The notes under the pieces were generated by a model, which was not told where the DNA came from, ran no database searches, and saw only the letters and a program-made list of their open reading frames with translations. A stretch of 38,268 nucleotides of DNA from Paraglomus brasilianum (lineage: Eukaryota): assembly GCA_910592345.1 (NCBI GenBank), contig CAJVPI010000260.1, positions 1-38,268 on the forward strand, written 5' to 3'. How positions within the stretch are numbered: the first letter of the stretch is position 1; each line of letters opens with the position of its first letter. The position numbers and the translations under genes were made by a program. This document shows, in pieces, positions 8,007-38,268 of the stretch.

Positions 8007-8214
8007 TGGGGCATGCTGCAACAAAACCAGACAAAGTGAACATTCAATTATGTGACATAAATGAGGGGCTGGTTATGATGTGGCTGTAAAATTGACCAGT
8101 GTAACTGATGGCATTTTGAAAAGTAATAATGGTGCTCATTCATAACTTATGGACTTGTTAATTTTAATGTTTCCTTTATCATACCAGAATGTGATGAATA
8201 TAAACCATAACAGG
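8007..8214 (+). repeat. Repeat family A end sequence (left arm of inverted repeat)
   Basis: 8073-8214 matches the reverse complement of 13224-13371 (about 5 substitutions, one 7-nt and one 1-nt indel). 8007-8090 matches 21653-21729. Confidence 0.92.
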
Positions 8215-8652
8215 GTGTTACGGCAAGCCGATCTGATGAATCAGATAAGTAAGTCACATGATAAAATCTTCCTCCGCGATCACACATCAAATAGCACAAG
8301 TTAAATTAGTAGCGGCGTTTCGAAATTTCTGCGGCAGGCGCAGCGTTTCAATTTTTCTGCGACAGCACAAGACGCCATAATTCATTTATACTTATTTCAA
8401 TTGATCTTCATAGAATTAGTAGTCTAAAAAGCGTTTCACTTTTTTTGTGATGCTGAAGATATATAAGCAGCTCAATTTCCATCGTATGAAATGTGAAATA
8501 TGTTACAATGTTTGAATGTTGAATAAATAAAATATTATTGATCTTAGTAATATTCCTTTATTATAAATATACGGTTTATTTCTATCGTCGAAATAATTGA
8601 TTATTAGACCGGATACTCCAATAAACGGCTCACTTAAGCTGTAATGGAATAG

Positions 8653-8801
8653 TGTTGTGTCTGAGTTGGGGACCTGTCTCAGTTCGGAACCCAGTCACTC
8701 AGTCCAGAACTCAGTTGTCTCGGTTCGGAACCCAGTCACTCAGTCCAGAACTCAGTTGTCTCAGTCTAGAACTGAGACAGGTCCCCAACTGAGGTACAAC
8801 A
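8653..8801. mobile_element. MITE-like element with 32-bp TIRs and an internal ~39-bp tandem duplication
   Basis: 5' TGTTGTGTCTGAGTTGGGGACCTGTCTCAGTT versus reverse complement of the 3' end TGTTGTACCTCAGTTGGGGACCTGTCTCAGTT (29/32). Second copy at 25699-25814. No clear TSD. Confidence 0.85.
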
Positions 8802-11028
8802 GCATTAATCAGTGGACGCCTGATTGTAATTATTATTTGCCATATGTGTCAGTAGTACAAGCGAGTGATATGGGGAAGTCTGCAATGGTCAAATTGATTT
8901 CTGACAGAGTTTTTGTTGTATACTGTTGTTTGAGGAATGTGCAACAAGAATTAGATCTAGGCTATCCAAAACGGTCCAGTATCACCCCAATCTTGTTGCT
9001 TGATCATAAGTTGACAAAAACGTCAGATAATGGGGATGAAATTTCTGTTCATCCAGAAAACATTCATCTGCTATTTCTGGGTGCTTGTATAGATTTGCTG
9101 GCCACATCATCAAAGACGCCGTCGGAATGGTTTTACTTTCAAAAAGATCATTCTTTTTGGTCACGGATTCAGGCATTGATGGAGGAATTGAAGAATGAAA
9201 TCCCAGAGCTTCAATATGAAACATCACTGCAAGACGAAAGACTCTCATCGGAATTCCTGTTAACTAAATGGAAAAATTTATGTAACACACCACATTTTAC
9301 GAAAGATTTTTGACTCATCTTTGTTTATGATGAATGTTGCAGTCTTGTCGAGAAAGATATTTTTTACATGCTTGTCGAGCTTTCAGAGCACTACCAAGAA
9401 TGGAATCTGTATCATCTTTATTTGTTATAGTTATGGATACACTCTCACGGATTTCTAATTTTTCTCCAACAAAATGTTATGAACCTTCAACACATGCTTC
9501 AGTCTCACAGATGCGACTTTTTCCACCATATTATCTTCTTGACTTTGTTGACATTTTTGTTCCTCAGACATCTCCGACAACCTTAAGTGAGTTTGCAAAA
9601 CCTGATCACTGGATGCTTTATGGGCAACCACTGTGGGGAGCTTTAGTACAGGCACAACAAACCAAAGAAGATCTGAAAAATAAATATCCACTGTTGGATA
9701 TTTTACTAATGGCTGCTGGTAAACTTATTGGTGGAGTTGATTTTCATAATTGGTTTTCAAATTATAAGATAAAAAATGAAAGAGTTACACCCTTGGTTGC
9801 TATTGCTGTATTGGGTCAGAGAGTTGCACTCAACATAATACCACAGTCAGAGATTGCAATGGAATTAGTAGCAAGTGCTATTACTATGCGAGTTTGTCTA
9901 CATATTACAGAAGATCGTGGAACTATCCTATCAACATACTTGTCTGAGCCAACTTTAAGTGAGGCTGCTGCATATATCATGAACATTGACAATGGGTTAC
10001 TTGTACCAGATCTGCTGACTATGTTAATCAATAGTATCAAAGAAGGAGTTGCAGAGGCCAGTTATCATGGTGAATTAGTAGCACGTTTTCTCTTACTTTT
10101 GGCATATGATTATGCCTATAGTCAGTTTATAGCAAATGTGTCATATTTTCCTGGCTATTATTCACAAGTCATCACTGTGCAACAATTCTTGCAGGCCTTA
10201 CTGGATTATGAGACTTTTAACCTAATTGCAACAGATATTTCCACCAGTAAACCCAATACATCAGCACCACTAGGTGAAGGTTATATACAGTTCAATCACT
10301 TTGTTTCAATAACCTACACACCTTCAAGAAAGCAATTGTTGAAATTCTTAGAACGAGGAGCTGCTGTATTATGCAAACATAACCAATGTGGTGTAGACAT
10401 TATCATACCAGTGTTACTAGAGCCTGGAGGAAGGATGAATATCAATAATATAACCTACATTCTTGTGCAAGTCAAAAACTGGAGACATACACCATCACAA
10501 CATCAAGTCCAAGAAGCTTCAAGAATGAAACTCTCACCTGAGTTTGCTGGAATTACCACACAACATTTATTACCTTATTTGTCTCTCTATTTGCAACTGG
10601 GTGGTGAGAAATGCACAGCACACATTGTGGAAGATATTGGTATTTTACCAGAAGTTGACCAACTGCATAAATTAGTTTTATCAGAACCCAATTTATTGAA
10701 ACGTCCAGCTGACAATGCAGAAATTCCCTTGAAAAGAGTCAAAATTGGCAGAAAAAAACGCTATCCATCAGATACATCAGTTTTTTCTGTGATATGTCAG
10801 ACTTTCCAAGTGTCATTAGCTGTTTATGGTCTTGGAAAAGAGGTGTATGCTTGTTTCAATCATTTCACAGCCATTGAGACCCAAACACAGATTTTAACAT
10901 CTCTGAGAAAGCTCTTGGTTGCCTGGCCTGATGCAGCTGAACTTGAGAATGATAGTAAACATGTACAACATATGCAACCATTAGTATATGTTGATGCAGT
11001 CAATAATAGTGACAATAATATTTTGTAG
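8802..11028 (+). pseudogene. Intronless P-loop NTPase plus C-terminal PD-(D/E)xK (REase-fold) nuclease gene, Crinkler/CR-effector-like architecture; disrupted
   Basis: YYLPYVSVVQASDMGKS (degenerate Walker A, 8858-8881); Walker B LIFVYDE directly after in-frame TGA 9311-9313; frameshift near 9355-9365; later YGQPLWGA, YLSEPTL, GELVARFLLL, FNHFV and nuclease motif GVDIIIPV...ILVQVKN. Confidence 0.78.
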
Positions 11029-11513
11029 CTGTCATTATGATAAGAATATTCTTATACCATGTCTTTGCAATTAAATATTAAAGATTAGATTGTATTACAA
11101 TATTCTGATATCAAATTCAATTCTGAGTATGACTTCTGGAGCAGTATTATTTGCCTGGCATTATATATTGGAATAAAACAGCAGTCTAAAGAAAAGCAAA
11201 ACACTATGTTTGTACCTTGTCAATTTTAATTGATATTAATATCACAATTTGCTTATCAATCATACTTTACACAAATCATGGCATTTACATAACCTGTAAA
11301 GGAGATGTAATACAGAGATGTGCATCAAGATAAAAGAGTGACTTTTTGGATAATTTATTCGATTTAAAAAGTTTGATAAATGCAAGTAACTTGAGATTTT
11401 AGAGTGATATTAACCACTCGAATTGCTTCTCTCCTTTTAGCAAGAAAATTGAAAATACTAATCCAAAGATAGGTTTACAAAGTATTAAAACTTATATATA
11501 GGATTACCCGTAT

Positions 11514-12601
11514 ATGATAAATAACGAATATAATGGCTCCACCAAACATGAAAAAGCAATACGTTTCTTGGAGACAGGTTGCAATTGTGGTTGCTCAAAA
11601 ATGATTCCGAGAGAGAAGTTTGCTGAATTACGTGAGGCGTTTCAAGCTCTCTCTAGATCCGAACAAGATATATTTTTAATGGCCCAGTTGAAAGCAATGA
11701 ATGGCGGAGAAATAACTGCCAGCTGACGTCTTAAAAAAAATGCGTACTAATAAGCGAACATTCTACTATTGAGATCGTAATACATCTCTTTGCCAGAAAA
11801 CGTATCTTAATATGTTAGGAATTGTCGCACTCACTTCGAAAACGTCAGAAATCACCTAGCGACAAATGGTATCGTACCGGGCGTTCATGGTAATATAAAA
11901 CGAATGCCGCGATGGAAAACCAAAATCACCATTGATATAACCGTTGCTACTGCCATGAAAAATTTTCTCGAAAATTATGCTGAAATTCATGGATTACCAA
12001 GTCCGGGTAGAATTGTCAATCGCATTACTCAATTGCTTACACTTCTGCCAGCTGAAACAAGTTGCAAATCGGTCTATCGTGATTTTATTGCAGGCCTCGA
12101 AAACGATAGCGCGTTGAAATTGTTAAAATATGATGCATTTCGCAAGTTATGGCACCAATTAACGCCTTATATTCAAATAATGAGTCCAAGAACGGATTTA
12201 TGTGACACGTGCCAACATTTCCGGAATGGCTTACAATATAATGCTCGTAAGGAAGAAGAGGCAAGAGACTTACTAAAGAAATTCAAAGAACATCTGGTTA
12301 AGGCTAAATTAGAGAGAAATTATTACAACAAAAAGACGAAATTAGCAGAACAACAGAGGAAATTGGTAAATGAACATTTTATAGCAAGAGGTAAAGCTGG
12401 TTATTGTAGCGTTGACGCTACTGCTCATTACAGTTACGATTGAGCGCAAAACGTTCACGTTCCCCATTCCGATCAACAAGTAAGATTTATTATCTTAGTC
12501 CGCGTAAAGTGCATTTATTTGGTATACAAGATGAAGCAGTGCGCGAACAAATTAATTATGTTCTCGATGAAGACGAAATTATCGGCAAAGGTCCTAATGG
12601 T
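11514..12601 (+). mobile_element. Sola1-like (DUF7869-type) DDD transposase, 5' part, truncated at GKGPNG
   Basis: GCNCGCS, VHGN, HGLPSPG, PRTDLCDTC, HYSYD(W)AQN (first catalytic D), YYLSPRKVHLFGI, DEDEIIGKGPN; several frameshifts and TGA codons. Confidence 0.8.
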
Positions 12602-12878
12602 AAAGAATTTACTGAAGACGGAATTGTTAAATACTATACTAAAAAGTTAGGAGGACAAAATCATGTTCAGAAGAAGTATGAAAGCCCTTTGAGGATCAGC
12701 AACAAGAAGTGTTCTGAACTTGAAAAAATCCTCTGGCTATCTTATCAGTAATTGGATTGCTTTCATGGCCGGAGGACTGGTGTGAGCTATTCTGAGCCGG
12801 AAAAAAATAGCTTCTTGATGAAATCAACCTGCTGAAGCCAAAAGTGATGAATTTGATAATGATGAGGAAGAATGGTAG
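12602..12878 (+). pseudogene. 3' fragment of a single-pass membrane protein gene readable with TGA=Trp (code 4); putative Mollicutes-related endobacterial origin
   Basis: With two 1-nt repairs in homopolymers (~12682, ~12762) and TGA=W: KEFTEDGIVKYYTKKLGGQNHVQKKYEKPFEDQQQEVFWTWKNPLAILSVIGLLFMAGGLVWAILSRKKIASWWNQPAEAKSDEFDNDEEEW*. TGA at 12715, 12721, 12783, 12816, 12819. Confidence 0.65.
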
Positions 12879-12928
12879 ATAAAGTTGCTGGAAACACAAA
12901 AAAGGTGTTCTAATAATGATTTGATTGT

Positions 12929-13186
12929 TTATTCTGCCAGTCTTCTTTTCTTTATTGGTTCACCATAAGTTGGCGTTAATGCTCGTTTAGTAGTTATGAT
13001 TTTCCGTTCCTCTTGATAAATTTCATAAGTGGTTTTTTCTTGATCTAGATATTGCTGGAGCATTTGGGTATCATTGATTTTGAAAACATAAGGGGCAATT
13101 TTTTCTCCTTGAGCTTTCTTTAGGATGCTTCTAATAGTGCTGTAATTCTTTGGTTCCATGGTGGATTTAATGTAGATTAGTTTCAT
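12929..13186 (-). CDS. Small 85-aa hypothetical protein with C-terminal basic motif PIKKRRL
   Basis: Intact ATG-to-TAA intronless ORF; paralogous decayed copy at 21756-21988 differs mostly at synonymous positions. Confidence 0.65.
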   Translation of the reverse strand: MKLIYIKSTMEPKNYSTIRSILKKAQGEKIAPYVFKINDTQMLQQYLDQEKTTYEIYQEERKIITTKRALTPTYGEPIKKRRLAE

Positions 13187-13223
13187 ATTAATATTTTTTA
13201 TATAGGGATAATCCTATATTAAT

Positions 13224-13371
13224 CCTGTTATGGTTTATATTCATCACATTCTGGTATGATAAAGTGAACATTAAAATTAACAAGTCCATAAATTATGAAT
13301 GAGCACATTATTACTTTTCAAAACGTCATCAGTCACACTGTACACTGGTCAATTTTACAGCCACATCATAA
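13224..13371 (-). repeat. Repeat family A end sequence (right arm of inverted repeat, outer ~65 bp missing)
   Basis: Reverse complement of 8073-8214. Confidence 0.92.
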
Positions 13372-15526
13372 TATATTACAACCAACAGTCATCGGATCGA
13401 ATGATTCAATACATGCGTAGTAACTACGTATATTAATAATATTACTGTTCACAAGTAGAAATAGTTTACCTCACAAAAATCAAATAAATCGTGCGCATCA
13501 ACTACCGTCTTTTACCATTTATTTGTCGTCAGTTCTAACCAATCTGCTACCCGCGTGCATCATGATGTGATAACGTCGTCTCTCGTATGTTTGTCAATCG
13601 AGAATATTCCGTCCATTGTATATGTTTCATGCCATTGCTAGTCCATTCATTGGATAATTATTTACGTCGAACAACTTTCTATCAGCAACCAGATAATAGC
13701 TGCCATCATATTCGGTAACCTTATCATGCTATTGCATACCCGCCTGTTAGAAGTGAGTATTTTCTGGCAAACTCACTCATTACTTACTGCTGGTGTATGG
13801 TTTTCAACGCTTCAAAGTAAAAGAATCATCTCTTTATAAATTCCAGCTTACAGTGGATTATTTGTGTCAACTTGGCCATATTTTGAATGAGGAATGCCCA
13901 AGGAGATTACTTAACAGTCTTCGTACTCATAATCGCGACACCAATTTAACAACTACGTGTTGACTCTTTTCGCAGCATACAATGTGAAGTTGACGTTCAG
14001 CCACATTTCTTTACTAGTTCGTTTTTAGCAAATTGTGCGTCATAGTCAGTAAATATTGTATTGAAATGCGTAATGTTTACAAACAAGTTTATGGAAATTG
14101 GTATGTTTTTCTAGCGCTCGTTCATAACTGCGTAAATTAACAAAAATAGCAATGTATTCCGAACAAAATAAACTATAAATGGTTAGCACTAAAATGCTCG
14201 CTCAAATTCAACAAGTTCTCAGTTTGACCAATTCAGACTAAAAACTATTTTACGTATCTGGGAATGTAAACAGCGATTGTACAAGTTCTCTGCTTGGGCG
14301 GATATACCACTCATACTTGTAATATTGTTGACTAATGATTATTAAGTGTCAAGAATGGCCCGGACGTTTTTCCTTAAACGGTTAGTTCAGCGAAAAATCA
14401 AAAACCAGCCCTTTCGCATGGCGCAGTAGGACTAGAATCGATGAGGCTAGCTAAATACAATGATTTGTGGAGTTGCATTGCTATTGTGTCATTAACTATC
14501 CATTTCCTACGCCCATGTTGCGGTGTTTATTTCCTTCTTTAGTTGCATAAATGTGTTCATTACTATTGTAAGACTACCATACCAGCAAAATGATATTACT
14601 ATTTAGTAATGCCATTCTACACACGTATTGTTTAAAGCGTGTTGTCAAAATGATGAAAGCATGAGCATTTTAATATTAAATCGGCCTTGATAACAGCGTT
14701 GCCTGTTTGCTGCTATATAATTAATATGACGCGACTAATTGTACAATACTCGTGATAAAAGTTATTTTACCTTGCCAAGTACATAATACTTAAGTAGTTA
14801 GATCAAGTGTTAAGCAGAGTCTGAGTTTCATAATATCTATCAAGATTACTATTAATTATTGGTATTCATATTAAAATGAATGTGACGATCGACAAAAGCT
14901 TCGGAAACTCGTGAAAACGGTTTCAGAAAGCAAATTCCTTGAGTAACTATTCCAATAGGACGTCTCAACCAGATCATCTACCGATGATCTTGAGAATCAG
15001 ACTTGTGACTGCATCTCTTTATGCCGTTTTAAACGATAGAATCCGCTGGCCAATCATCAAGTTGCGTTCAATTGACAAATGATCCACAACTCGCGAAACA
15101 CTTCTCCAATATATCATTTCAAATAACAACATTTTAATATTCACATCCAATGCCTGTGGATACTTTTATAAATAAATAAATGCTCACTAAAAGTTGTTCA
15201 TTTATACAATATCAAAATATACTCTAGCTTTGGTTTTTACATTAAAGCCGGTTAAAATAATATCACAAATAATGTAATGCAAAATAATACAATTAAACTT
15301 TAAGAATCTGTCTATCTGCATCAAATGGCACATCTCGAAATTCTCTCATACGGAACAACGAAGACGTAGAATTATAGAAATATGATGGAAAAATACAAGT
15401 GACAATACATTGAACACATCGATTACACCATATTATCCCAACAAATAATCAACCGCCCATCTCTGTCATTAACACCTGTCACTTGATATAATTAATTCTT
15501 GTTATAATGAAGCCAGTAAACTAAAT

Positions 15527-18500
15527 CTACTCATGTAATACTTTTTTGTCTCGCTCCTCAACAATCTTTAGAGAGAATACCTCAGAACCGCCAATCGTCG
15601 GATCATTTGCGGAGACGAGAATATTGCCTTTATTATCCGAAAATAAACATTGCAGGTTGTTTCCTTCAATGATCTGTTCCAATGACCCGGTTTCTACATT
15701 TCTGACTTCAATCAATGATGCCTCAAACGCAAGAATGTATGGATATTGCATGGCTACGGGGATATAAAGCCATATTAGTACGTGGATAAAACGCAAAGAA
15801 AAATTTCAAACTCTTGCTTACCAAATGATGTTGGCGCACCCTCCCACATCACTAACCAATTATGGCGAGACCGCCTCCCATCTTTATTCACATAGAATGC
15901 AAACTCTACATGAAGTGGAAACCATAAGCAACGTATATCATACACATTAGAAAACTACATGACTGACATACCATCATAACAGAGTAAAAAGTCCTCTCCG
16001 AGTCGAAAAAGTGCAATTGGCCTAACAGAGTCTTTCTTCTGTATGAAGCCAAGGGTAGTGTCTCCCGAGTCAAGTAGACGCTGTGTGTTTAAAGATTCGA
16101 GATCAACAATCTCAAAACCTTTGGCACAGCCTACACACAATGTTCTCTTGAGGAAATGTAATGAAGACACTTCTGATGGCACATACAATTCCTATTAATA
16201 GAAATCAATTAGTATACTCGCAAAGTTACACTCAATGTTCATTGTATAAACAGTACCTTGTGTATTTTGAGATAATCATTTGAATTACGTAGGAATTTGA
16301 AACCAGGGCCCTTGTTCTTGCTCTTTGAAGTGTAATCTATTGGTTCTAGCGTTTTTATTGTCGACTGAAGGGCTGTTGATTTCACGGTCGCAACCAGCGT
16401 CCTCCCCATACAAGTTCCCGATTTAAAGAAACTTGCATGTACTCCAAGTTTGTGTGCACGTTTATTGGAATGGTTTCCATCATCTGATTGTAAAGCATCG
16501 ATAGAGAAACTATATAAACTTCTGTCTGGTATAGTATATGTAACAAGGAATTGTCATTAAGTATCCAATACATGGCAAATGCATTATAATCACGCCGATA
16601 TAATTACTGAATAAATACCAGCTAGAACCAATAAAAATCCGTAGTCCTCGAGCATTTCAATCTGTGATACTTTTTCAATTTCAAGGGCTTTTTGGGGTAC
16701 ACTTTCAGCACCAGGGTTAATATCGCCAATCCATATTCCTGTTTCTGTCCCGAGGGCCAACTTCTGATAAGAGTCTAAGTGAGAAACATAAGCTGAAATC
16801 ATTCCACAAAACGCAAGACATGTCAACAGTAATTGTGAATTAATATTATATGTACCAAAATAAGCTGCACAGCTGATATTGTTCGTCCCTGAGAAGAACT
16901 TCCCTCGTATTAGAATGTTCTTCTGGAAGACTGGGTGCTCACAGAGCGCCTGTTTTTGATTTTTGATTTGCTTTATCCATTTCTCACGTGCAATTTGCGT
17001 AGTAGCATAAAGTGTCGCTGTGAAGCCCTTCTTCCCTATATAAGTGAACGTTATCGGATATGACTTGTTGATAGGCTTTCCTCCGGATTTCTCAGGAGCT
17101 CCTTCTTGTGTGGATATGCTCAGTAATTGAAGTGGAATCGGCTGTAATAATGTGATATTGATAATAGCAAAAGTCATTTAATATAAGATGACACGAGCTC
17201 CCCATAATTTTATCAGCAAATGTTTCAAAAGCTTACTTTTCGGTGTATTTTATACTGTTGTTCTATTTGCTTGTTGTTCCTCGCTTTAACCATTAATAAA
17301 GCATGATCGAATAAAATTACTTGTAGGTCGTCTGATTCCCCTGCGCTGCCCCCCTTCTTCTTCAGCGAGCCTTTGTATATTATTTCTCTACACTCGTCTG
17401 TCAGCCTTAAATCCTATAATACAATACAAAGCGGTCAACATAGACACTATATTATCATGTGTGCTGACTAACGTAGTACGTACCATAAAGTCACTTCCTT
17501 TTGGTATTACCAGTTGGTCATGAAGTTGTTGCAAGTTGAATCTGTTCTCCGTCTTCCCAGATTCAATATTTACATTTGTCAAAAACTCTTTAATAATGTT
17601 GATAACTTTTGGAAGATTTATTTTATCTGGGTGATTGTCAGGCGTATGTTTGAGAACAGCCTGAAGCAGTAACGGGTATCGTCCTAATCGAGTGATCGGT
17701 TTTGTCAGATATCCATTGAGCTCTAACTTCCTAGACTCGGGAAGATGCTCGGTTTCCTAGAATTATCGCATAGGCACTTTGTTAGTCGAACACGATTTTC
17801 GTCATTAACACGTTCAATAAAGAAGAACAACTTACCTCTACAAATTTGGAAAATGCGCTGTTTGTACTTTTGTCTCTTTCAAATTCATATTTCCCCCATA
17901 TTTGATGAGCGCCATATTTAATGAAAGGGTCAAATAATGGCACATACTCCAAAAATATATCCCCAATCTGCTGTACAATTGCATATGAATTTTGTCTTTT
18001 TTGGAGAGCATCGGACAGTATGGCATTAACGCTATGTATTTCCATTATGTTATAAAATACGTTATGTAAGAACTGAGCGCGACGATGCTCTGGTATAACA
18101 TTTAGGTTTGAAAGAGGTGTCATCCAACACTAAACATATTTGAGTCGGTTAGTGATAAAGTTTGCCAGAATTTCAACGCATAATATAAACGTACATCTCT
18201 AACATATTCCAGATCCCTGACAAAATCTTTTTCGGTATATATGACTTCATTTATAGCTTCCTGACGTTTTTTCTCCGTCTCTGATACAGAATTGGCTATC
18301 TCTGTCGGTACAGAGTGTATCCACAATTTCTGATCCTGTGGCAGTAATATAACATTAAGTTCGATCTAATATATAGCGAATTGACAATATTGCTAGTACA
18401 TACCTTCTTCTCCGATAATGATTCCCGACTGATCACTTTCTTTATCTGAGCGCTTGGTCTTTGATGCTGTATATAAGCCTGTATATAATTGTCGAATAGT

Positions 18501-20068
18501 CAGTCGGAATAGTCATTGTCTACTTGAAACAGCTACCCATATTATAACCGTGAATTAATTTTTAGACTCACCTGCTCTAGTCTCCTTGGGCAAGTGATAC
18601 TGTAGCAAACATTCTCTCGCGTACATGTCGGCGAATAACAGTCAGTCAATAGCGTGAATACACCGTTGGGTAGATCAGCTTCTTGCGCTTCCGCTTCATT
18701 AGATGCCTCATCAAAATTACCTGGAGAAGACATGATGGAAGGCATTCTATGAAATTGATACAATTCGTTTGGAGAGTCGCGAAGACGGTGGTCGTAAGTA
18801 ACATCATGGAAAAACTTTTGGGCATCTAATGCGCGACCGAGCAACAACGCCAGATTTCTGTCTGTTGTTTTGATGATAAAAGCTATAGCTTCCTGTTGAG
18901 ATCAATTGGATGCAGGAAAAAAAAAGGGTGATTATCACAATGTCAACTATCTGAAATACAAGTCGTTACACATGCATACCACAGCATCTTTCCCATCAAA
19001 ACAATCTTTGTATTCTATGTCGTCTTTAGTTTTCGTTGACATGATTATCCTGTGACGGAACGTCTCTGCCACTCTAGAGAGTAGGGCAGGATATACCATC
19101 GGAATGCGCGATATTGAATACGGAGTTTTCGGAGACACCGTAGTGCTCGATGACTCCGATGATGATACATCAGAGAATGTGATTGATCGGTGGCGCTGAT
19201 GTTCGACGTGACTAGCGGATACAGATCTCTTCTCCCTTCTGGGGATGTTATCTGAACGAGCAGGTATAATGAGACCGGGTCCTAAAGAAAGTGATTAAAG
19301 GTTATGAACAAAGTATATTCCGGGATTGATGTCCCTATGGTCTTCCTATAATAATGTAAATTCTTGCATCATAATATCAACTCTCTTTTTTTTTCCCGTA
19401 TCTTCACACTTGTAATCCTATCAAATCATTGTATTCCCAAAAAACTATATCTATTTTTCATGACAAAATTTCTCGCGGCAATTGTTAAGCTCAATGACTC
19501 GTTCAAAACTTTCCAATCCATTCCTGACTATCATCATAAAATGGGAAGCATGTACATACCGTTTATGGTATTTGAACGATTAAAATTGGTACTTATTAGA
19601 GGTACATTAGAATTGGTTGGCTGTATACGGCCTGCCGTGGACATTGATCTTGTAGCGGATGGGTGAATGCGCTGAGAATGGATCTCAAGCTGTGGAGGAG
19701 ACTTGGCCTGTGCCAGCTGTTGATAATTCTGATATGTCGGAATAGAATGCTGGGGAAGATACATAGACTGGTGACTATGTCCATTATAATGCGAGTACCT
19801 TAGATGCTCGTGAGAAACCGAGTGAGTGAGAGGTGTGTACGAGTGAGAGGAGTGAGAGGAGTGAGAGCGATGTTGTTGAGGGTGGTGAGAACTGTATTGC
19901 GACGAGCGATTTATTGCACGCGTATATGACTGGTAGCGTTGCGGCAGTTGCTGTTGGTGCTGCTGTTGATGCTGCTGCTGCTGCTGTTGTTGTTGTCGTT
20001 GTTGCTGTTGTTGCTGTTGTTGTTGTTGTTGCTGTTGTTGTCGTTGTTGCTGTTGTTGTCGTTGTTGC

Positions 20069-20114
<46 letters not shown>

Positions 20115-20358
20115 GCTGCTGCTGCTGTTGTTGCTGCAGTAGTGATGGAGGTGGTATTGAAGGAGGTGGTATTGAGGGCGGTGGGAATTGGGGTGGTAGC
20201 CGTGGTTGAGACGATAGTTGAGAAGTGAGAGATGTAAATTCGTCATATATCGAAGTTTCTAAGCTTGTGGGACTTTCTGGAGAGTGTGGTTGATATGGGG
20301 TATAACTCCTTGGCCCACGCGGTCTCCGCATCTCGAAATCGTCATAGTGAGCACTCAT
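15527..20358 (-). CDS. ROM2: Rho1 guanine nucleotide exchange factor (ROM1/ROM2/Rgf1 family): low-complexity N-terminus, DEP, DH, PH and CNH domains; multi-exon
   Basis: VYPALLSRVAETF, DGKDAV, LLGRALDAQKFFHDVTYDHRLRDS (DEP); GVFTLLTDCYSPTC; EKKRQEAINEVIYTEKDFVRDL (DH); PIPLQLL..YPITFTYIGKKG (PH); YPYILAFEASLIEVRN (CNH). Start codon tentative because a possible splice acceptor lies just upstream. Confidence 0.93.
19945..20138 (-). repeat. CAA/CAG trinucleotide repeat encoding a polyglutamine tract of about 60 residues
   Basis: (TGT/TGC)n on the plus strand, in frame in the ROM2-like first exon, with Arg/His interruptions. Confidence 0.95.
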
Positions 20359-21652
20359 TCCCCCTGTATTATTAATGAACCGGAAGGTAAGTTTATTTGA
20401 AAATTATCCCAGTGAGAGAATACTTTCAGGAGCACAAATAGATAATATCGATGTTACATGGTACCTTGCTATTACCAAAAGTTAAAATAAATAAATTCAT
20501 GTTTGTAAGGGGGGCCCGGGGGTGGGCATATTAATATGAATTTCAAGGGGCGTTAACGTCACTACGATGCCATAATTCTGGGCATAATTCTGAAGGAATC
20601 CACATTTATTAAACCAATGTTCTCTGTGGAAGAGATCACTCGAGTAATATAAGCCAAACTATGGATTAGCCTTTCAATTAATTGTTTACATTTACATTTT
20701 TACATTGGGCTGTAGTGGGATGTTTGGCGTTAGTTGTATTTTCCGATTGTGTAAATAACTGGTTTCATTTTTCGGCCATTGAATTTGGTAACGACATGTG
20801 CGCAACTTGTCGTTAGCAATTCACAATATTACGGCGATAGAACGCAGCAATACTAATATTATTGATAATAATAACTGTCATACGGTAAATCTGACTAATC
20901 TTTCCGCATAATAAACTTTTGTTGTGTAACATTAGTTTTAATATTTATTCAATTACCATGTCCATCTTGGGATAAACGCTGAGACCTAGTATTAATGCCC
21001 CCCGCATTCAATGCGGTGAAAATTGAAACATTAATGCTGATAATGGATAGTCTTAATGTATGAATTTCTTGGCCTCGGGTCTTACAACCGCCACATGATT
21101 CTACATTATTAATTTCCTCGATAAGCTGTATTTTTAAACCTTCAACTAGATGATGAAACAACCGACTATCAATAATACCAGAGAGCTAAAGTTTGTGCTT
21201 TATGATAGTGTATGGTTTTACTATTACTAGCCATATTAATATTGCAAGTTGATCGTTTTATTGGTCTCGCATTAAAAAGTTGAGACAAAATTCCCATTTT
21301 TTGTAATTAGCTGGTTTGATTATAGTTGGCATTGGAATCCTTTCAGATGAAGCTTACTAGAAATCTACGATAGACGTCTTCGAATACTCACATAATTAAT
21401 GAAATAAATATCTTGTGTGACCATTATAGTGAGTATAAATTAAGAATAATAACAAAGACAACGTTTCACAGAATATCCGATTTCTTGGAAATGAGTAAGA
21501 CGATATTCCTATTTTTAACCATCTGATAATGAATTGTTATCGCGCGTTTTATGTAAAAGCGCAAAACAATGCTTGCTAAAGTTTATGGATTATCCGCTAG
21601 TAAATAATCGACGGCGCAGACCAGTTAAAGTTTATCAAAGAGGTTAGCATAT

Positions 21653-21988
21653 TGGGGCAGGCTGCAACAAAACCAGACAAAGTGAACATTTGATTATGTA
21701 ACATAAATGAGAGGCTGATGTGGCTGAAAGTTAACTCTATAAAAATAAAATATATAAACTAATTTACATTAAATCCACTATGGAACCGAAGAATTACAGC
21801 ACCATTAGAAGTATTTTAAGAAAGCTCGAGGAGAAAAAATTGCTTCATACTCAATGATACCCAAACTCTCCAGGAATATCTAGATGAAGAAAAATTTACT
21901 TATGAAATTTATCAAGAAGAACGAAAAATAGCGTTCATTAACAGCAGCTGATAATGAACCAAGAAAAAAACGAAAGCTAGAAACGTAA
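21653..21988 (+). repeat. Third copy of repeat family A: end sequence (internally deleted) plus decayed copy of the 85-aa ORF
   Basis: TGGGGCAGGCTGCAACAAAACCAGACAAAGTGAAC matches 8007 onward; KLIYIKSTMEPKNYSTIRSIL...PRKKRKLET* matches ORF 12929-13186, with frameshifts and a damaged first ATG. Confidence 0.88.
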
Positions 21989-22689
21989 AATAAATAGGTG
22001 CTTTCTTACTATCATTGGGATTATTATTAATAAAGACATCAAATTCAAGACAAATTTTTTCATTGGTTCTTTGTCGACATATTCATCCGACTTTTATTCT
22101 TACAAACCAATCCAAACTTTAGGAGACGATGATGCGTTTGTTTATTTGTATCAAAGACTGTTTAATCCGTAACCGTAGCGTATTTTAATGTTACCTGATG
22201 AACTCATTATAAAAATAACACGACCTGCACTTGTATTTTAACTCAGAAGAATCAAATCATAAAATCATTCCAGTATTGATATCGAAATAATTTATTCGAT
22301 AAAAAAACTTGCAAACAACAAACGATTCAAAAAATGCTTGTTTTTATTATTCAATTCTTTTGCGGGTTGTTGATCGGAATTATCCTTGATCTCTCGCTCC
22401 ACTATGAAATGCATAATCAACTTGATAATATGAACGAAAAGCTTGAGATAACAGTTCAAGCAGTTAAATCTAAAGTAAACGTTCATTGAACGACATTATT
22501 CGTTCAGCATTGACATGTGTTAATCCAGCAAAATCCTTTAAGATTAAACTTTTGTGCATATGAATTTATATTTCCAAGCAATATACGTGGTATTTTACAC
22601 TTACTGTTACTCTAATTTAACATTAACCTCCGTTATACCTTTGTGCATGATTAGACTATTATTATACTGACTAAACCTCGTCATACTTT

Positions 22690-25698: not shown

Positions 25699-25814
25699 AT
25701 TGGGGACCTGTCTCAGTTCTGGACTGAGTGTCTGGGTTCTGGACTGAGACAACTGAGTCCTGGACTGAGTGACTGGGTTCCGAACTGAGACAGGTCCCAA
25801 ACTCAGACACAACA
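25699..25814. mobile_element. Second, inverted copy of the 8653-8801 MITE
   Basis: TTGGGGACCTGTCTCAGTT...AACTGAGACAGGTCCCAAACTCAGACACAACA; one TIR lacks its outer bases. Confidence 0.85.
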
Positions 25815-26344: not shown

Positions 26345-26660
26345 CAAGAAAACGCCTTAGTTTTCTTCATTGATATAATAGATAGCCTTTTTATGTAAGT
26401 ATATTGCAGACACAGCTCTTGCCTGCTGCCAAACACATATGCATAGCAAGAACTGGCATCTGCGACAAGATAATGAGTTATTCAAAGCATACCTCAATGT
26501 TACTAAGGATTTTATTGTAACAAATGGAATTTGGACTAGTGGCTGACCATTCAATAGTCCAGACCTAAACCAAGTCGAAAAGTTCGTGACTAAAGAATTG
26601 GAGAAAAAGGACTGTTGAAATTAAATCTCAACAATAAATGGGGATAGAATTTTGTATAAA
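26345..26660 (+). mobile_element. Tc1/IS630-family transposase, 3' (DDE) half, decayed
   Basis: VFFIDIIDSLFYVSILQTQLLPAAKH, WHLRQDN..SKHTS, (W)PFNSPDLNQVE, INGDRILY. Confidence 0.78.
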
Positions 26661-26685: not shown

Positions 26686-26812
26686 ATTTACATTATGCCG
26701 AGGTAAACTAATTACTTATGTTTATTGAATAGTTTAAATAATTATTGACTTATTATCATGTATCATTTTCACTAGTTATGTAATAAGCATCCAGATATTC
26801 TTACCACAGATG
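26686..26812 (+). repeat. Captured fragment of TKL kinase gene family including a complete intron
   Basis: Aligns to 37147-37274: TATGCCGAG|GTAAAC...CACTAG|TTATGT.ATAAGCATCC.GATATTCTTACCAC.GATG. Confidence 0.88.
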
Positions 26813-27300
26813 AGTGCATTTATTTGGTATTCAAGATGAAGCAGTACGCGAGCAAATTAACTATGTTCTCGATGAAGACGAAATTATCGGCAAAAGCCCT
26901 AATGGCACGCTGAGCATGGTATTCGATGGGATTAAGAGATTGAATAAAGGCGAAAAACGTCTAAAGATTACTTGTGATAATGCGGGGGGACAGAATAAAA
27001 ATAACGCCACTACTTGATTTTATTTGTATTTGGTTATCTGCGGCTATTATGAAAATATTGAATTAAATTTTATGGTACCTGTACACACTAAATTCAAGTG
27101 TGATGGTAGTTTTGGATTAATTAAAAAACTATACCGCAAAACAACAGTGGATTGCGTGAATCATATTGTTGAGGTTGTGAAAAGATCAAGTACAGCCGGA
27201 TTAAATAAATATCAGCGTTATGATAACGGAAAAGTTTTCAATACAAAAATATAAGCATTTTTTATTTAAAGCAGCCAATCCTGGAGTCGCCAAAACCCAA
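26813..27300 (+). mobile_element. Second Sola1-like transposase fragment (catalytic core)
   Basis: VHLFGIQDEAVREQINYVLDEDEIIGK is near-identical to 12509-12600; continues ITCDNAGGQNKNNATT(W)FYLYL, FMVPVHTKFKCDGSFGLIK, HFLFKAANPG. Confidence 0.85.
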
Positions 27301-30300
27301 CTGGTCCCGTAACGTAGAATCATAATATACGCGACAAAAGATTGTTTCCCTTTGCAACAAAATAATATTATTCACACAACATAGCTTTTTCCGTGGAAGA
27401 ACTTTGTGCCAGTTAATTTGCTTTTATGGAAATTAGTTAAACTTCTCACTCGCCTTACCTCTGTTAAATATTTGAGACATTGTAGCAATTAAGTACACTT
27501 TATTCCAGGTCGTTTAGCGATGTTCTGTGCTGGCAGAGTAGGGAATAACGGTCTCTGTATATTATAAGTTCCAGAACCAAGAGCTTAATTAGATTCTTTT
27601 CGGATATTTTGTAAGTACAAATTATCGAATAAATAAAACAGGTTTCAAATGTAATTAAATTACTTGCTGATACCGAGTATCCATGGACACAGGAATAATA
27701 ATATTAATTAAACCGTGAATTTTATTAATTTTACATCCCCGTGGCGGACTTATAATGTGAGCTTCACCATTCACACAATTGATCTTTGTTACCAAAAATT
27801 AACAATAATATGGACGAATCAAGCGACAAGCATTTATTACTCTTCTCTTCAAAATCCAGCTGTTCCTTTTTGGACTTCTGGGAAAGACCAATAAATGCTT
27901 GTTAAGGTAAAGGATAAATTAGAATTGGGAAATGAGAAAGACAGCGCTATATCTTCTTCTCTAAAGTTTTGATAATCATAATCTATTAAAACACATTAAG
28001 CTCATAGTAAGCGACCTGCTAAATTACCCAAAATCAAAGTAAATTTTGATTACAAGTACAGAATTATTAGTACATACATAGTTATATATAGTATAGTTCC
28101 AATTGGACTGTATTAATGCTATTTCATGACATTGCATGCTTACTTACAAGTTGGTTCCATTCTTTTGTTAATTCTTATTCTGCTTTAACTCACTAGTAAT
28201 TCCCCAATAAAAGCTTTGATTAATAAGGGTATACCATTTTCTATTTTCCATTACTTGCCTAATCTTGACTGATGCTTTGGAACATTATTCTCAAAATTTA
28301 GTATCTCCAAGCAAAAACCCTTTTCACGAATGCATACTAGTGTTAGCTTGCCAAACCTGAAACGGAGAATCTTAAAGGATGCTTTACAGAATAAACATTA
28401 ATGAAAGTGATCTCGTCTGTAAATTACTTTAAGACTATTATACACCTTTTACTCTGCTGATGTTTCCAATGTTTACAATTTTGTATCATTTATGGAGTGA
28501 GTAGTAAAGACATTTTCAGGGGTCAAGTTTGAAAATTTATACACTTGATAAAGACAGTTTGCAAACTTGTGTAGGGTACCATTCGTTCAAATCACTTATT
28601 CAAGTGTCTTTCTTTTTATCGCCGAGGTCTCAAACGGGTTACTATTATCATATTACAAAACCTGTAAATAGGTGAAAGGATGGACAAGTGAGAACCCAGA
28701 TCGATAATGAGACATACAAGCAGAATATCTGCCAGGAAAATCAATGTTATTGATTAGAAGATAAACCACCAAAATGCTAACTACATTTTCAAACCACTCA
28801 CTTCACTCGATGGTTAAACAAAGATGAAATATCATACTATTTCCGTTCACTTTGTTTGCAGCATGCGAAAAAGACCGGATCTACATCAGTCAGCCCGTTC
28901 AATTATATGTCATTCGTATTGATACTTTGTGTTCAATTAACCAAAAGGGCGAGTATAAACCTTAGGGGCAAAAGGCATCATAACAAAGTTAAGTTTCAGC
29001 TCCTAATTTTCCAAGGTTCAGCGCGTGAATAGTGTGGGAATATCTGTGATCGCAGCCCGTTCAGTAAATTGATCAGTATCACAGTCTTTCTGTTTTGGCT
29101 AACAATTTCACCATCCTTTTTTAGGCAAATACCTATCGACAATCAACAGGCAGTTGACATCCTAGAATCTTATCGATCTTACGTGTGGGACATATCATCA
29201 TGCGGACACTAGCCAAAAAGTGGGGATGGAGAATATGTAAATTGTTTGTTGAAGCTACGTATAGACATTGATCTTTCTTATTTATTACTAAAATAATGCG
29301 AATTTTCGTATCTATGTGTGCTATCTAACCAGGCGAGTATTTATACGTTGTAATTAATGACAACTGTCAAGGTATCGAAAAAAGCTATATGGAATTTCGG
29401 TATTTCTAAAAAAAAACCAAACTAAAATTAACTAGACGATCAATTTCGGAAGATCGCTCGACGTCATTCAGGTTGACTATTTCAACAAGATACCTCCACC
29501 TAAAGCAATCTCTCTAGCCCATTCAAACAGTCTGAATGTGCAAGAGGTAAAGCAACTAATACTTGAATAGAAAACCTTATTTCGTTGCCATTGATAGATA
29601 GTGTGACATCATTGTGCATGTGTTTAATATTAGATTTTCTAAATTAGGGAATGTGTCATGCATGTACAATTATAGAGTCGCTTCCCCGATCCAGCGAAAT
29701 TGCGCCATAATTGTTGAAACTTTGACTATACCGAAGACAGAGCCAATAAAAAAGTCATAAATACTTGCATGAACCTGTCTCTCCGCAAAACGTGCCGATC
29801 AGACCAAATAATTATGCGGAGAACACATTCATGTTTACTTTGTTATAGAATTGTATATTAAGGCTTTGATGCTATGAAACAAACACACAACCTTTGCATT
29901 TCATCCATCTGACAGCTTTTTTATGTATTCTCTTTCCTCTACTTTCGATTTTCTCGCTTTGTGGCCGTCTACTTTTTCCAACCGTAAACTCGCCTTTTGA
30001 TTCGTATGTGAGCACGTCGTTTCGTTGCGAAATTGTGAAAGTAGTACAAACCCCTAATCTTAAATCCTCTTTGGCGGAGATTGTTACCAATTTGGGCGAT
30101 TTGAGACACACGTTGAACGTTTTGTAGAATAAATAGTCGCGGGAACCGAAAAGGTCGAGCGGGCATTTTTAAGTGTCTTCCTTTGTATAAAGAAAAAAGC
30201 AAGAAGAAATAAACGATAACCAAGTAATTAAGCCATGCACTAGTATGTATTATTACTGCATTTAATTCCTACAACTTGCGTAAAATCAGGTCTCAATTAA

Positions 30301-36506: not shown

Positions 36507-38268
36507 ATGTCATTAGTTCCAAGGATTAATAATCCAGTAATTGACAACTTGGTTCAATCCTCCTCAAGACTTGAATGGATTCATTACGAGGAAATCACCA
36601 ACATAAAACCAACTCAAATTGACAACGTCTATTCTGCTGTTCACAGTGATCGCATGGTAGTACTGGTATTCCTTGGAAATGATGAAATATGTACACTTGT
36701 AAGTGAGTTTGCTAGAATATACTCACTTCCAACACACGAATACAACAATGATGTCAGTCAATTTAGACGATATTCCAAATGGCTTAGCAGTCGCAACAAT
36801 CTCATAAAGGGATTTACCAAGCATGACGACAACTATTGCATGGTTGCTGATGAACCCTTTTACCATTATTATTCTCTCTATGGGTTCTGCTCCGCATGTG
36901 GAATACTCTGATGTAGTCCAGTGTGGTGCATTTGCGGACATAAGGAATTATCTGATGGATGGACTAGCAACAATAAGCAACTCGACGAGTTTATCAAGAA
37001 ATCTCAATTACAAACAAACTCTGCAAATGATGCCTATTTGGAATGGATTCCATTTGATTGTATTCATGAATATGGACACTTGTATGGACTACCTACTCGT
37101 ATATATGTTGAATTGATTCCACTTGAGATAACAGACGAGACACATTATTTATATTATGCCGAGGTAAACTATTTACTTATGCGTCATGTTTATTGAATAG
37201 TTTAGGCGATTATTGACTTATGTATCATTTCCACTAGTTATGTGATAAGCATCCGGATATTCTTACCACGGATGTTTGGGTTACCATCGGATTCACATAT
37301 GATACACATAAACAAGAGTATTGTCTGATAAAACGTGAGGATGGCTTATGTCTGGGGTGTGCAAGTCAATTAAACCCCAAGATAAATCTATTCTCTTATG
37401 AATGTAAAGCACCAAGACCTGCTGATTGGACGACTGGCAACAAGTCTTTGGATTCATTTCTAATAAAGTCGTGGAGTAATATGAAGTATATATTCGATGC
37501 GTACATACAATGGATTGAATACTGTCTATTGACAAACATACAAGAGATGACATCATTACGCCATGGATGCACACATATAGCAGAATGGACAACAAATGAA
37601 TTGACAAGTGTGACACTCAAAAAGATAGTTGAAGGGGATGATCAGTTATTTGATTTTCATCAGGTAAATTATTTCACGCGTAAAATGCAAGTAGTATTAC
37701 TAACGTGTGTATCAAGCAGATTATTGTTGTAACGACTGTATTTGTTTACTCAAACAGCTAACTAAGGAATATCCAGAGATATTAACACCCGAGAATATTT
37801 GGATAATTGGGATTGCTCAGAAGCCATCTACTCGAGAATATTATTTAGTTTTCTACCACGACGTACATGCACTATTGGACAAGTTTATACAACTTAACGA
37901 TGATATTGAATACATAAAGTATAGCGACTTTTACGAGCTCAAAGAGATCGGATCTGGTGGTTATGGAACCGTTTATACTGCCAACTATAACAAGTATTCA
38001 GCAGAAGAGTATCAGAATATACCATCAACTGTTGTATTCAAACGGTTTAAGAGTTTTAATGAAACGCCAGAATTATTTATTTCCGAGGTAAGCAATAATT
38101 GATAGTATTAATTAAAGTGATATTTAATTTGACACTGTATTTGTTTCTATTCAACATAATCCTTTCCTTAAAATTTATGGAGTGACACAAGACCCAGAAA
38201 CAAAAGAGTACGTGATTGTTATGCAATATGCTAACAATGGTAGTCTTTTGTCTTATTTGGATCAAAAT
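36507..38268 (+). pseudogene. Tyrosine-kinase-like kinase with repeated degenerate N-lobe modules, probably disrupted; runs off the window
   Basis: EIGSGGYGTVY, VVFKRF, IYGVTQDPETKEYVIVMQYANNGSL; introns after 37163, 37663 and 38087; in-frame TGA 36909-36911 within CSACGIL*CSPVWCIC; no usable AG acceptor before HNPFLKIYG. Confidence 0.8.

Follow-up and report, generated by a model that had tools for sequence, protein, structure and literature searches.

A dead, internally deleted Sola-like transposon in Paraglomus brasilianum, whose UGA=Trp genes were probably selected in Mollicutes-related endobacteria and whose copies probably re-inserted into the fungal nucleus

Features of the locus

The DNA analyzed here, hereafter called the window, is a stretch of 38,268 nucleotides of P. 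brasilianum, and it presents the features of fungal-type DNA: its long ORFs are few, and it contains a PH/CNH gene, a poly-Q ORF and MITEs. It carries an internally deleted copy of a Sola-like transposon with three frameshifts, together with a second fragment and, third, a further left arm. The element itself spans positions 8008-13372. Throughout the text, L-numbers are metagenome loci, X-numbers are read runs and P-numbers are database proteins. The features are the following:

8008-8214, + strand: left terminal inverted repeat (TIR), starting with GGGGC and preceded by ATAT; it matches ends in L003, L005, L017, L018, L019 and L029
8645-11028, + strand: standard-code fungal gene upstream of the transposase, broken, CpG-depleted and with a MITE at 8653-8801; identities of 31-35% to the intact upstream gene of L007 and of 26-37% to its counterpart in L005
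11478-11513, + strand: conserved leader with the imperfect palindrome ATATAGG-N6-CCTATAT, where the similarity within the family begins
11514-12600, + strand: 5' part (about residues 1-365 of 589) of a code-4 DUF7869/Sola-like transposase; 88-89% DNA identity to L006, L007, L008, L017 and L018
12601-12940, + strand: accessory-slot remnant past the deletion junction, with a membrane-like, Trp-rich stretch that code 4 alone leaves open; a small number of related copies in the read runs
12932-13213, - strand: small ORF of the terminal arm, 85 residues from Met, starting MKLIYIK, with no Trp codon; 52-92% identical ORFs in L001, L002, L003, L011, L018, L020 and L029
13224-13372, - strand: right TIR, with the outer ~65 nt missing
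21654-22474, + strand: left arm of another copy, with TIR, small-ORF remnant and the remnant of a gene also found within L017 and L018
26813-27305, + strand: 3' transposase fragment of another copy, with the catalytic region, TGA=Trp at 27015 and a ~50-nt deletion at 27244; DUF7869 match at E=5e-12

The window also contains a piece of the PH/CNH gene (16587-17177), presumably ROM2-like, the poly-Q ORF (19528-20403) and a tRNA-Leu(CAA) (1169-1253). A MITE-like hairpin family with 41-nt internal repeats is present at 8653-8801 and 25700-25814; a tRNA-Pyl called by ARAGORN lies on a MITE hairpin and was rejected. Another repeat family, at 13458-13777, 36702-37675 and 26686-26812, has ORF remnants that look kinase-associated by eye (no Pfam match) and abuts the second transposase fragment.

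The transposase copy at 11514-12600 is a pseudogene, because it presents three frameshifts with respect to L018, the closest relative that is intact (deficits of 2, 1 and 4 nt after 11737, 11824 and 12477, respectively), and a TGA at 11724, a codon that is CGA in most other copies. The original prediction, made from the letters of the window, had listed TGA codons at 11770 (FYY-stop-D), 12441 (YSYD-stop-AQN) and, in the second fragment, 27015 (NATT-stop-FYLYL), along with the use of TGG (RWK, at 11913; LWH, at 12150), and all of them are present. Those at 11770 and 12441 are inherited TGA=Trp codons; the stop at 11724 is a private CGA-to-TGA change in an Arg column, as had been suspected, with C being the majority in X1, X4 and X3 and the minority in X2. 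The count of about 50 CpGs in 1.1 kb was also accurate (53 in 11514-12601, observed/expected ratio, o/e, of 1.36). Nevertheless, the argument built on CpG retention did not stand: the median o/e of the 1-kb bins of the window is 1.0 (at least 1.0 in 19 of 38 bins, at least 1.3 in three), and the outlier is the CpG-stripped neighbor. We rejected CpG retention as a mark of bacterial residence, one intact clade of the family being itself CpG-depleted (o/e 0.05-0.10).

The similarity to the transposase stops at 12600-12602, where a deletion in the element joins codon ~365 to the accessory-slot remnant. At this joint, GPNG/KEF, an in-frame fusion to a code-4 membrane fragment had been proposed. The frame past the joint closes at 12749-12751 and the Trp-rich membrane stretch (12705-12875) lies in another frame, so an in-frame fusion would need another frameshift. 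The frames imply no fusion protein, a functional one at 12600 was rejected, and the most plausible interpretation of the joint is a deletion junction within a dead copy. The best read contig over it has 28 letters on the short side, against a tool threshold of 31. No homologue of the remnant at 12601-12940 was obtained among 13 candidates (none at E<=10), by local comparison, or with PHROGs and NCBIfam. The fragment at 26813-27305 belongs to a different copy, since it overlaps the first one by 93 nt at 94% identity.

UGA as a tryptophan codon in the family

A metagenome scan gave at least 63 loci (at least 592 pattern matches), of which five distant ones (28-33% identity) were dropped and 58 were used to read codons. 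At the five Trp columns of the transposase, these 58 close loci have 129 TGA, 87 TGG, 1 TAG and 10 other codons. In 26 of the 30 loci aligned as a single block, the TGAs at Trp columns are the sole stops, the other four having further stops. The TGA codons of the family are inherited and do not result from decay; they keep to Trp columns in frames that are conserved and otherwise open, a pattern that chance is far from explaining. At the level of the window itself, in run X1, the best match to its DNA, G at 12443 accounts for 6,413 of a depth of 96,946 (6.6%), about 93% of the depth being TGA, with no row for TAG. The 25 longest clean loci, chosen for having Trp-column TGA as sole stops, add up to 12,243 codons with no stop elsewhere and carry 66 TGA, 45 TGG and 1 TAC at the Trp columns. 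None of the 26 loci spanning all five columns was free of TGA. Furthermore, dN/dS under table 4 had a median of 0.079 (0.043-0.159) in 12 near-complete loci (66 pairs, with saturated pairs left out), and at least 11 TGA/TGG swaps were placed on a DNA tree made without the Trp columns. The inference that the transposase evolved under UGA=Trp is supported by the Trp-column counts, the dN/dS values and the swaps more strongly than had been claimed. On these alignments, we are nearly certain that the family is under purifying selection with UGA=Trp.

The competing explanation from the start was a TGG>TGA mutation bias in dead fungal transposons. The proportion of 129 TGA to 1 TAG and the absence of other stops in the 25 long frames refute it for the transposase family. 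Moreover, CAA>TAA changes were seen in decayed copies alone (14/433) while the share of TGA does not rise in them (63/115 in decayed against 66/112 in intact copies), and TGA is the majority in X1. One Tc1-like remnant with TGA at a Trp motif speaks for such a bias, to which we leave hardly any chance. Of the two Tc1 remnants with TGA at Trp that had been mentioned, one was found by a motif hunt (26544) and the second was not. The former is a Tc1/IS630-like remnant at 26440-26620, whose TGA occupies the Trp of WPxxSPDLN; it could represent a second code-4 transposon family or chance decay.

In other runs, the A at 12443 was kept in three of three contigs of the metatranscriptome X18, and G (TGG) was found in one of the two covering contigs of X17, guessed to be RNA; nothing from X16, likewise guessed to be RNA, aligned there. 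Runs X16-X20 contribute small shares and are no evidence of habitat or expression. Of the clean truncations in the databases, 7/16 for the transposase and 18/20 for accessory gene 3 stop immediately ahead of a Trp. Named fungal gene models skip Trp 87 in 8/10 cases, Trp 312 in 12/14 and Trp 403 in 9/12, and keep Trp 135 in 9/13 and Trp 214 in 11/14; the Dentiscutata model P0027 has Trp at the four columns that it covers. In addition, in the public models P0009, P0010, P0014, P0017, P0018, P0023 and P0024, a kinase or another fungal gene lying upstream is fused to the transposase by way of predicted introns that leave out Trp codons; these models are likely annotation artefacts. Gene callers splice around the TGAs and fuse the transposase to upstream kinases; therefore, the annotations of these loci are wrong.

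Structure of the element

The original prediction overlooked that the transposase forms part of a larger element with TIRs, code-4 accessory genes and fungal genes upstream, present in many copies. In the window, the TIR pair (8073-8214 and 13224-13371) is 91% identical over 149 nt. The arms of L018 reach 428 nt at 93%, and a 44-nt core is common to L003, L005 and L019. The TIR starting with GGGGC comes after the accessory genes and, in one subfamily, is lengthened to ~430 nt by a small ORF. The motif AWWT adjoins eight of nine TIR tips; there is no paired target duplication because no locus shows both ends of one copy. In L029 (2923-2926) a copy abuts the TIR of another copy ~50-65 nt from its tip, and the right TIR of the window (13372) breaks near the same place. 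In L018 (5087-6339) a right and a left arm, separated by 316 nt, point outwards, and the contig begins with a match to the cargo of L017; this pair could correspond to tandem copies, a circular form or a collapsed assembly. The sequence ATATAGG-N6-CCTATAT is found at 11496-11513 and 13192-13219, before the transposase and the small ORF, and marks the start of variable upstream DNA. This palindrome is a candidate promoter, binding site or capture site.

On the 3' side of the transposase, the family carries one or two genes on the same strand (a coiled-coil family and a Cys-rich family), readable without introns and either overlapping or separated by ~10-15 nt from stop to start. Being intronless, closely spaced and on one strand, the gene layout of the element is bacterial in style. 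The accessory genes have 64 TGA to 12 TGG in 14 frames, with up to 8 UGA per gene; in the same comparison, transposases have 43 TGA to 29 TGG and upstream genes 6 TGA to 107 TGG. Searching L018 for sigma-70 promoters and terminators yielded counts at the level of shuffled sequence (20 vs 18.5 and 0 vs 1.6, respectively). With the accessory proteins, PHROGs and NCBIfam yielded coiled-coil noise alone, and accessory gene 3 matched only clusters without taxa in the ESM Atlas. Both unrelated accessory proteins often end in A-x-I-E-[VI]-K (L008 2374-3669, L003 4434-6117, L019 1694-3458), possibly an export signal; we take these tails to resemble those of proteins of Mollicutes-related endobacteria (MRE).

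The upstream side is of a different nature. The likeness among copies ends 20-60 nt upstream of the transposase start. Upstream sequence of 1.1 kb or more is available for 21 loci, and in 15 of them (11 distinct arrangements) a same-strand ORF of at least 200 residues ends at most 800 nt from the match. The upstream ORFs scanned comprise protein kinases, an AAA-ATPase-like gene and NTPases like the gene at 8645-11028. They are written in the standard code, with 107 TGG against 6 TGA in 22 segments, three of the six TGAs being the terminal stops of three upstream kinases; spliceosomal GT-AG introns are present in the upstream genes of L017 and L001/L005. The gene at 8645-11028 (CpG o/e 0.19 and 0.52; no Pfam family), which we liken to a Crinkler-type NTPase, is a probable cargo. 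A left arm is located 3-4 kb upstream of the transposase in the window, L017 and L020 (in L020, the ORF part only), and no TIR tip was seen within 2.4-6 kb upstream in L001, L003, L005, L007 and L013. From this arrangement, the upstream fungal genes are likely enclosed by TIRs; a chance pairing of arms is possible, since solo arms are common. In L004, L010, L013 and L020, which represent the strongly CpG-depleted clade, the transposases have a CpG o/e of 0.05-0.10 and are yet intact; their upstream kinases have 0.12-0.28, and other clades 0.6-1.5.

Ancestry of the transposase

The Pfam family DUF7869 matched window positions 26820-27251 with 46.2 bits (cut-off 26) and the full-length relative P0028 with 61.6 bits. 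A catalytic DDD triad is of the Sola type, and of the 76 aligned proteins 74 have D311, 73 have D390 and 75 have D432. As regards an RNase H-like DDE fold, the structure model (pLDDT 59) has a beta3-alpha-beta-alpha-beta pattern at 302-444, with weak Foldseek matches to DDE enzymes: the best rows were IstA and retroviral integrases, at E 0.003-0.05 and none at <=0.001. A PDB sequence search returned only vimentin (E 0.8). The label Sola1 is putative and is based on motifs and on target preference, the target-site duplication of Sola1 being the 4-bp AWWT.

A profile search gave 10,030 representatives; of the best 150, 82 cover the core and 60 were taken into a first tree of 76 rows. In a second tree of 35 rows (IQ-TREE, LG+G4), the code-4 clade, itself supported at 100/100, groups at 100/99 with five unnamed soil proteins and one protein of Gigaspora margarita, and a Rhizophagus protein lies just outside this group, its placement being weakly fixed. 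The soil proteins look standard-code because none of 14 truncations among the cluster members falls at a Trp. The P0355 cluster (P0513-P0526) comprises 98 full-length DUF7869/Sola-like proteins with Desulfobulbaceae and Thermodesulfobacteriota MAG names, on contigs of up to 244 kb. Apparently, it is a genuine bacterial branch, separate from the code-4 clade: a grouping of both was rejected (AU, p=4e-51, for a group picked after the trees had been seen). The description of the transposase as eukaryote-type is supported in that, in trees with bacterial homologues, its nearest relatives are fungal-type, the Gigaspora sequence among them. A fungal source of the code-4 element is favored by these trees, with one named fungal sequence in the sister group, sisterhood rather than nesting, and real bacterial DUF7869 proteins on the other side. 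Sola1 and Sola3 are reported from Rhizophagus in the excerpts available of two articles (PMC5751038; PMC11075540).

Copies in fungal genomes

Reads cover the transposase ~80-450 times as deeply as low-copy sequence in X1, X4 and X3, the last from soil (the reference being the flanks and, in X3, the junction remnant), and 1,597 of the 1,806 matching contigs of X1 are less than 99% alike, with many deletions. The plain reading, depth being no copy number, is on the order of hundreds of decaying nuclear copies. Relatives were located on scaffolds of Diversispora and Geosiphon that measure from 70 kb to 2 Mb, and named close relatives came from Ambispora, Diversispora, Geosiphon, Gigaspora, Funneliformis and Dentiscutata assemblies. 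The genes next to intact copies are of fungal rather than bacterial type wherever long upstream ORFs were readable. No bacterial core gene and no mitochondrial gene was found in any metagenome locus, and ARAGORN found no tRNA in 28 loci.

The compartment that reads UGA as Trp

We consider MRE, with good probability, to be the UGA=Trp host. The element was likely kept working in endobacteria because the whole family uses TGA for Trp. CpG methylation is known in Mollicutes and in fungal nuclei and is not expected in mitochondria; the CpG depletion of one intact clade and of many accessory genes fits a CpG-methylating host. According to the portions consulted of three articles, MRE are intracellular bacteria of mycorrhizal fungi (PMC11423566), use table 4 in their annotation and contain host kinases (PMC10507103), and devote 1-8% of their non-orphan genes to transposases (PMC4916391). 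On the other hand, there is no direct sighting of the element in an MRE genome, and any route for a transposase from bacterium to nucleus is hypothetical. In GTDB, searched with no positive control for the presence of MRE, the transposase gave 50 pattern matches and accessory gene 3 gave 90, none of them confirmed. No MRE name was seen among 25 transposase matches, the 120 listed of 338 accessory-gene matches, or the listed cluster members. This absence is weak evidence because MRE are poorly represented in databases, as stated in the part of PMC11423566 available. IMG/VR had no match to the transposase, gene 3, the TIR pattern or the small ORF, and tblastn found none in plasmids and phages.

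The same absence of MRE among GTDB matches and names would agree with another compartment, namely the fungal mitochondrion or some other code-4 replicon (a mitochondrial plasmid, another endosymbiont or its plasmid), from which the nucleus was reached as DNA or by transposition. Mould mitochondria use table 4 as well, and intronless AT-rich genes would fit. However, the CpG depletion (o/e 0.05-0.10 in one intact clade, and many accessory genes) points to CpG methylation, the loci lack mitochondrial genes, the viral, phage and plasmid collections were without a match, and the precise TIR ends at AWWT speak against a passive, NUMT-like transfer; we therefore regard this origin as improbable. Those tips, with AWWT at eight of nine, also weigh against a scenario in which MRE DNA was transferred passively once or a few times long ago and was later duplicated, without transposase-driven re-entry. 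MRE DNA does contaminate or enter fungal assemblies, according to the accessible part of PMC11423566, and the window copy is junk-like. Nevertheless, intact copies have diverged to dS saturation, each still open, and nothing bacterial-looking is seen beyond the element's own genes, so that passive transfer seems to us very improbable.

An element confined to the nucleus would require recoding: a suppressor tRNA that reads through UGA, A-to-I editing that turns UGA into UGG, or the mobilization of the rest by rare all-TGG copies. A TGA-free nuclear helper copy may exist, because P0027 has Trp at all covered columns and X17 has a TGG contig at 12443. Nuclear recoding would also account for the fungal-type surroundings of all intact copies with readable long upstream ORFs, and a clade that is CpG-depleted yet intact suggests long nuclear exposure. 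However, neighboring fungal genes use TGG only and end at TGA, no tRNA was found in the 28 loci scanned, and the X18 contigs keep the A at 12443. Up to 8 UGA per accessory gene in operon-like spacing suit bacterial translation, and selection on TGA-bearing lineages whose dS is saturated goes beyond what a helper by itself can account for. Nuclear recoding is, in our opinion, quite unlikely.

Proposed mechanism

Altogether, the window element is, on balance, probably a dead, internally deleted Sola-like cut-and-paste transposon whose UGA=Trp genes were selected in MRE and whose copies re-inserted into the fungal nucleus. Taken by itself, repeated transposase-driven re-entry into the fungal nucleus is probable. 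As the tree suggests, a Sola-like element in the standard code would have passed from a mycorrhizal fungus into a UGA=Trp host. There, as the codon counts show, TGG and TGA turned interchangeable, and one or two TGA-rich genes follow the transposase in operon-like order. The transposase made in the bacterium, complexed with the excised element or free in the host cytoplasm, would then integrate TIR-bounded copies at nuclear AWWT sites. Because they hold UGA stops, copies in the nucleus could not be translated beyond the first of these and would decay by frameshifts and deletions, as the window copy does and as perhaps hundreds of others do in the genome. Standard-code kinase and NTPase genes, in a fixed slot upstream and between the TIRs where both arms are seen, may travel as cargo.

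A further step is a shuttle transposon with a two-kingdom cycle, in which the transposase is made in the endobacterium alone and repeated nuclear integration is followed by the pick-up of kinase or NTPase genes and by return to the bacterium. We put this forward tentatively, as an idea that could well prove wrong. If it were true, the element would be a physical vehicle of gene flow between fungus and MRE in both directions, and the symbiont would drive the expansion of host gene families. A repeated fungal transposon family selected in a different code already implies an enzyme made other than by standard nuclear expression. If the host is MRE, a eukaryote-type DDE transposon would be thriving in a bacterium, which provides a testable mechanism for gene transfer between fungus and MRE. 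The TGA codons would serve as a built-in tag for where each copy last worked. In the literature covered, which left outside Bao 2009 and the 2015 PNAS MRE genome papers (Naito 2015; Torres-Cortes 2015), no UGA=Trp Sola element was found, nor a transposon of eukaryotic type that persists in an endosymbiont and invades the host again.

Comparison with known systems

The closest parallels are the Sola1 DNA transposons, whose features were reportedly set out by Bao et al. in 2009. Three conserved Asp, the CxxC and GHTKF motifs, TIRs and AWWT at the ends are common to both; UGA=Trp coding, extra operon-like genes and standard-code fungal genes upstream distinguish the element described here, and the Sola elements that we know of are read in the host nuclear code. 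Pack-type TIR elements such as Pack-MULE carry host genes, with introns, between TIRs. In our case, whole kinase and NTPase genes lie beside an intact transposase in another genetic code. Nuwts and NUMTs are nuclear inserts of endosymbiont or mitochondrial DNA, and they resemble the present element in being code-4 DNA that decays in a nucleus. Unlike them, this element ends at transposon TIR tips and belongs to one family only, in many copies.

Transfers of prokaryotic insertion sequences to eukaryotes (IS607, and an IS5-like element in a rotifer) also place a bacterial-style element in a eukaryotic genome, as described in the portion available of a broad survey, which in that portion reports no conclusive eukaryote-to-prokaryote DDE transfer (bioRxiv 10.1101/2021.09.26.461848). 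Here, in contrast, the ancestry points to fungi and nuclear copies would be untranslatable. MRE insertion sequences and fungus-to-MRE transfers (kinases, LRR proteins, MGMT) are further parallels. In the sections available of two MRE studies, MRE are rich in transposases (PMC4916391), and the transfers are host-derived genes kept in a table-4 endosymbiont (PMC10507103), as would be the case of the transposase. The element differs from those transfers in that the transferred thing would be the mobile element itself, in that its copies are seen in host-type DNA, and in that no Sola is named in MRE in those sections (PMC10507103; PMC4916391).
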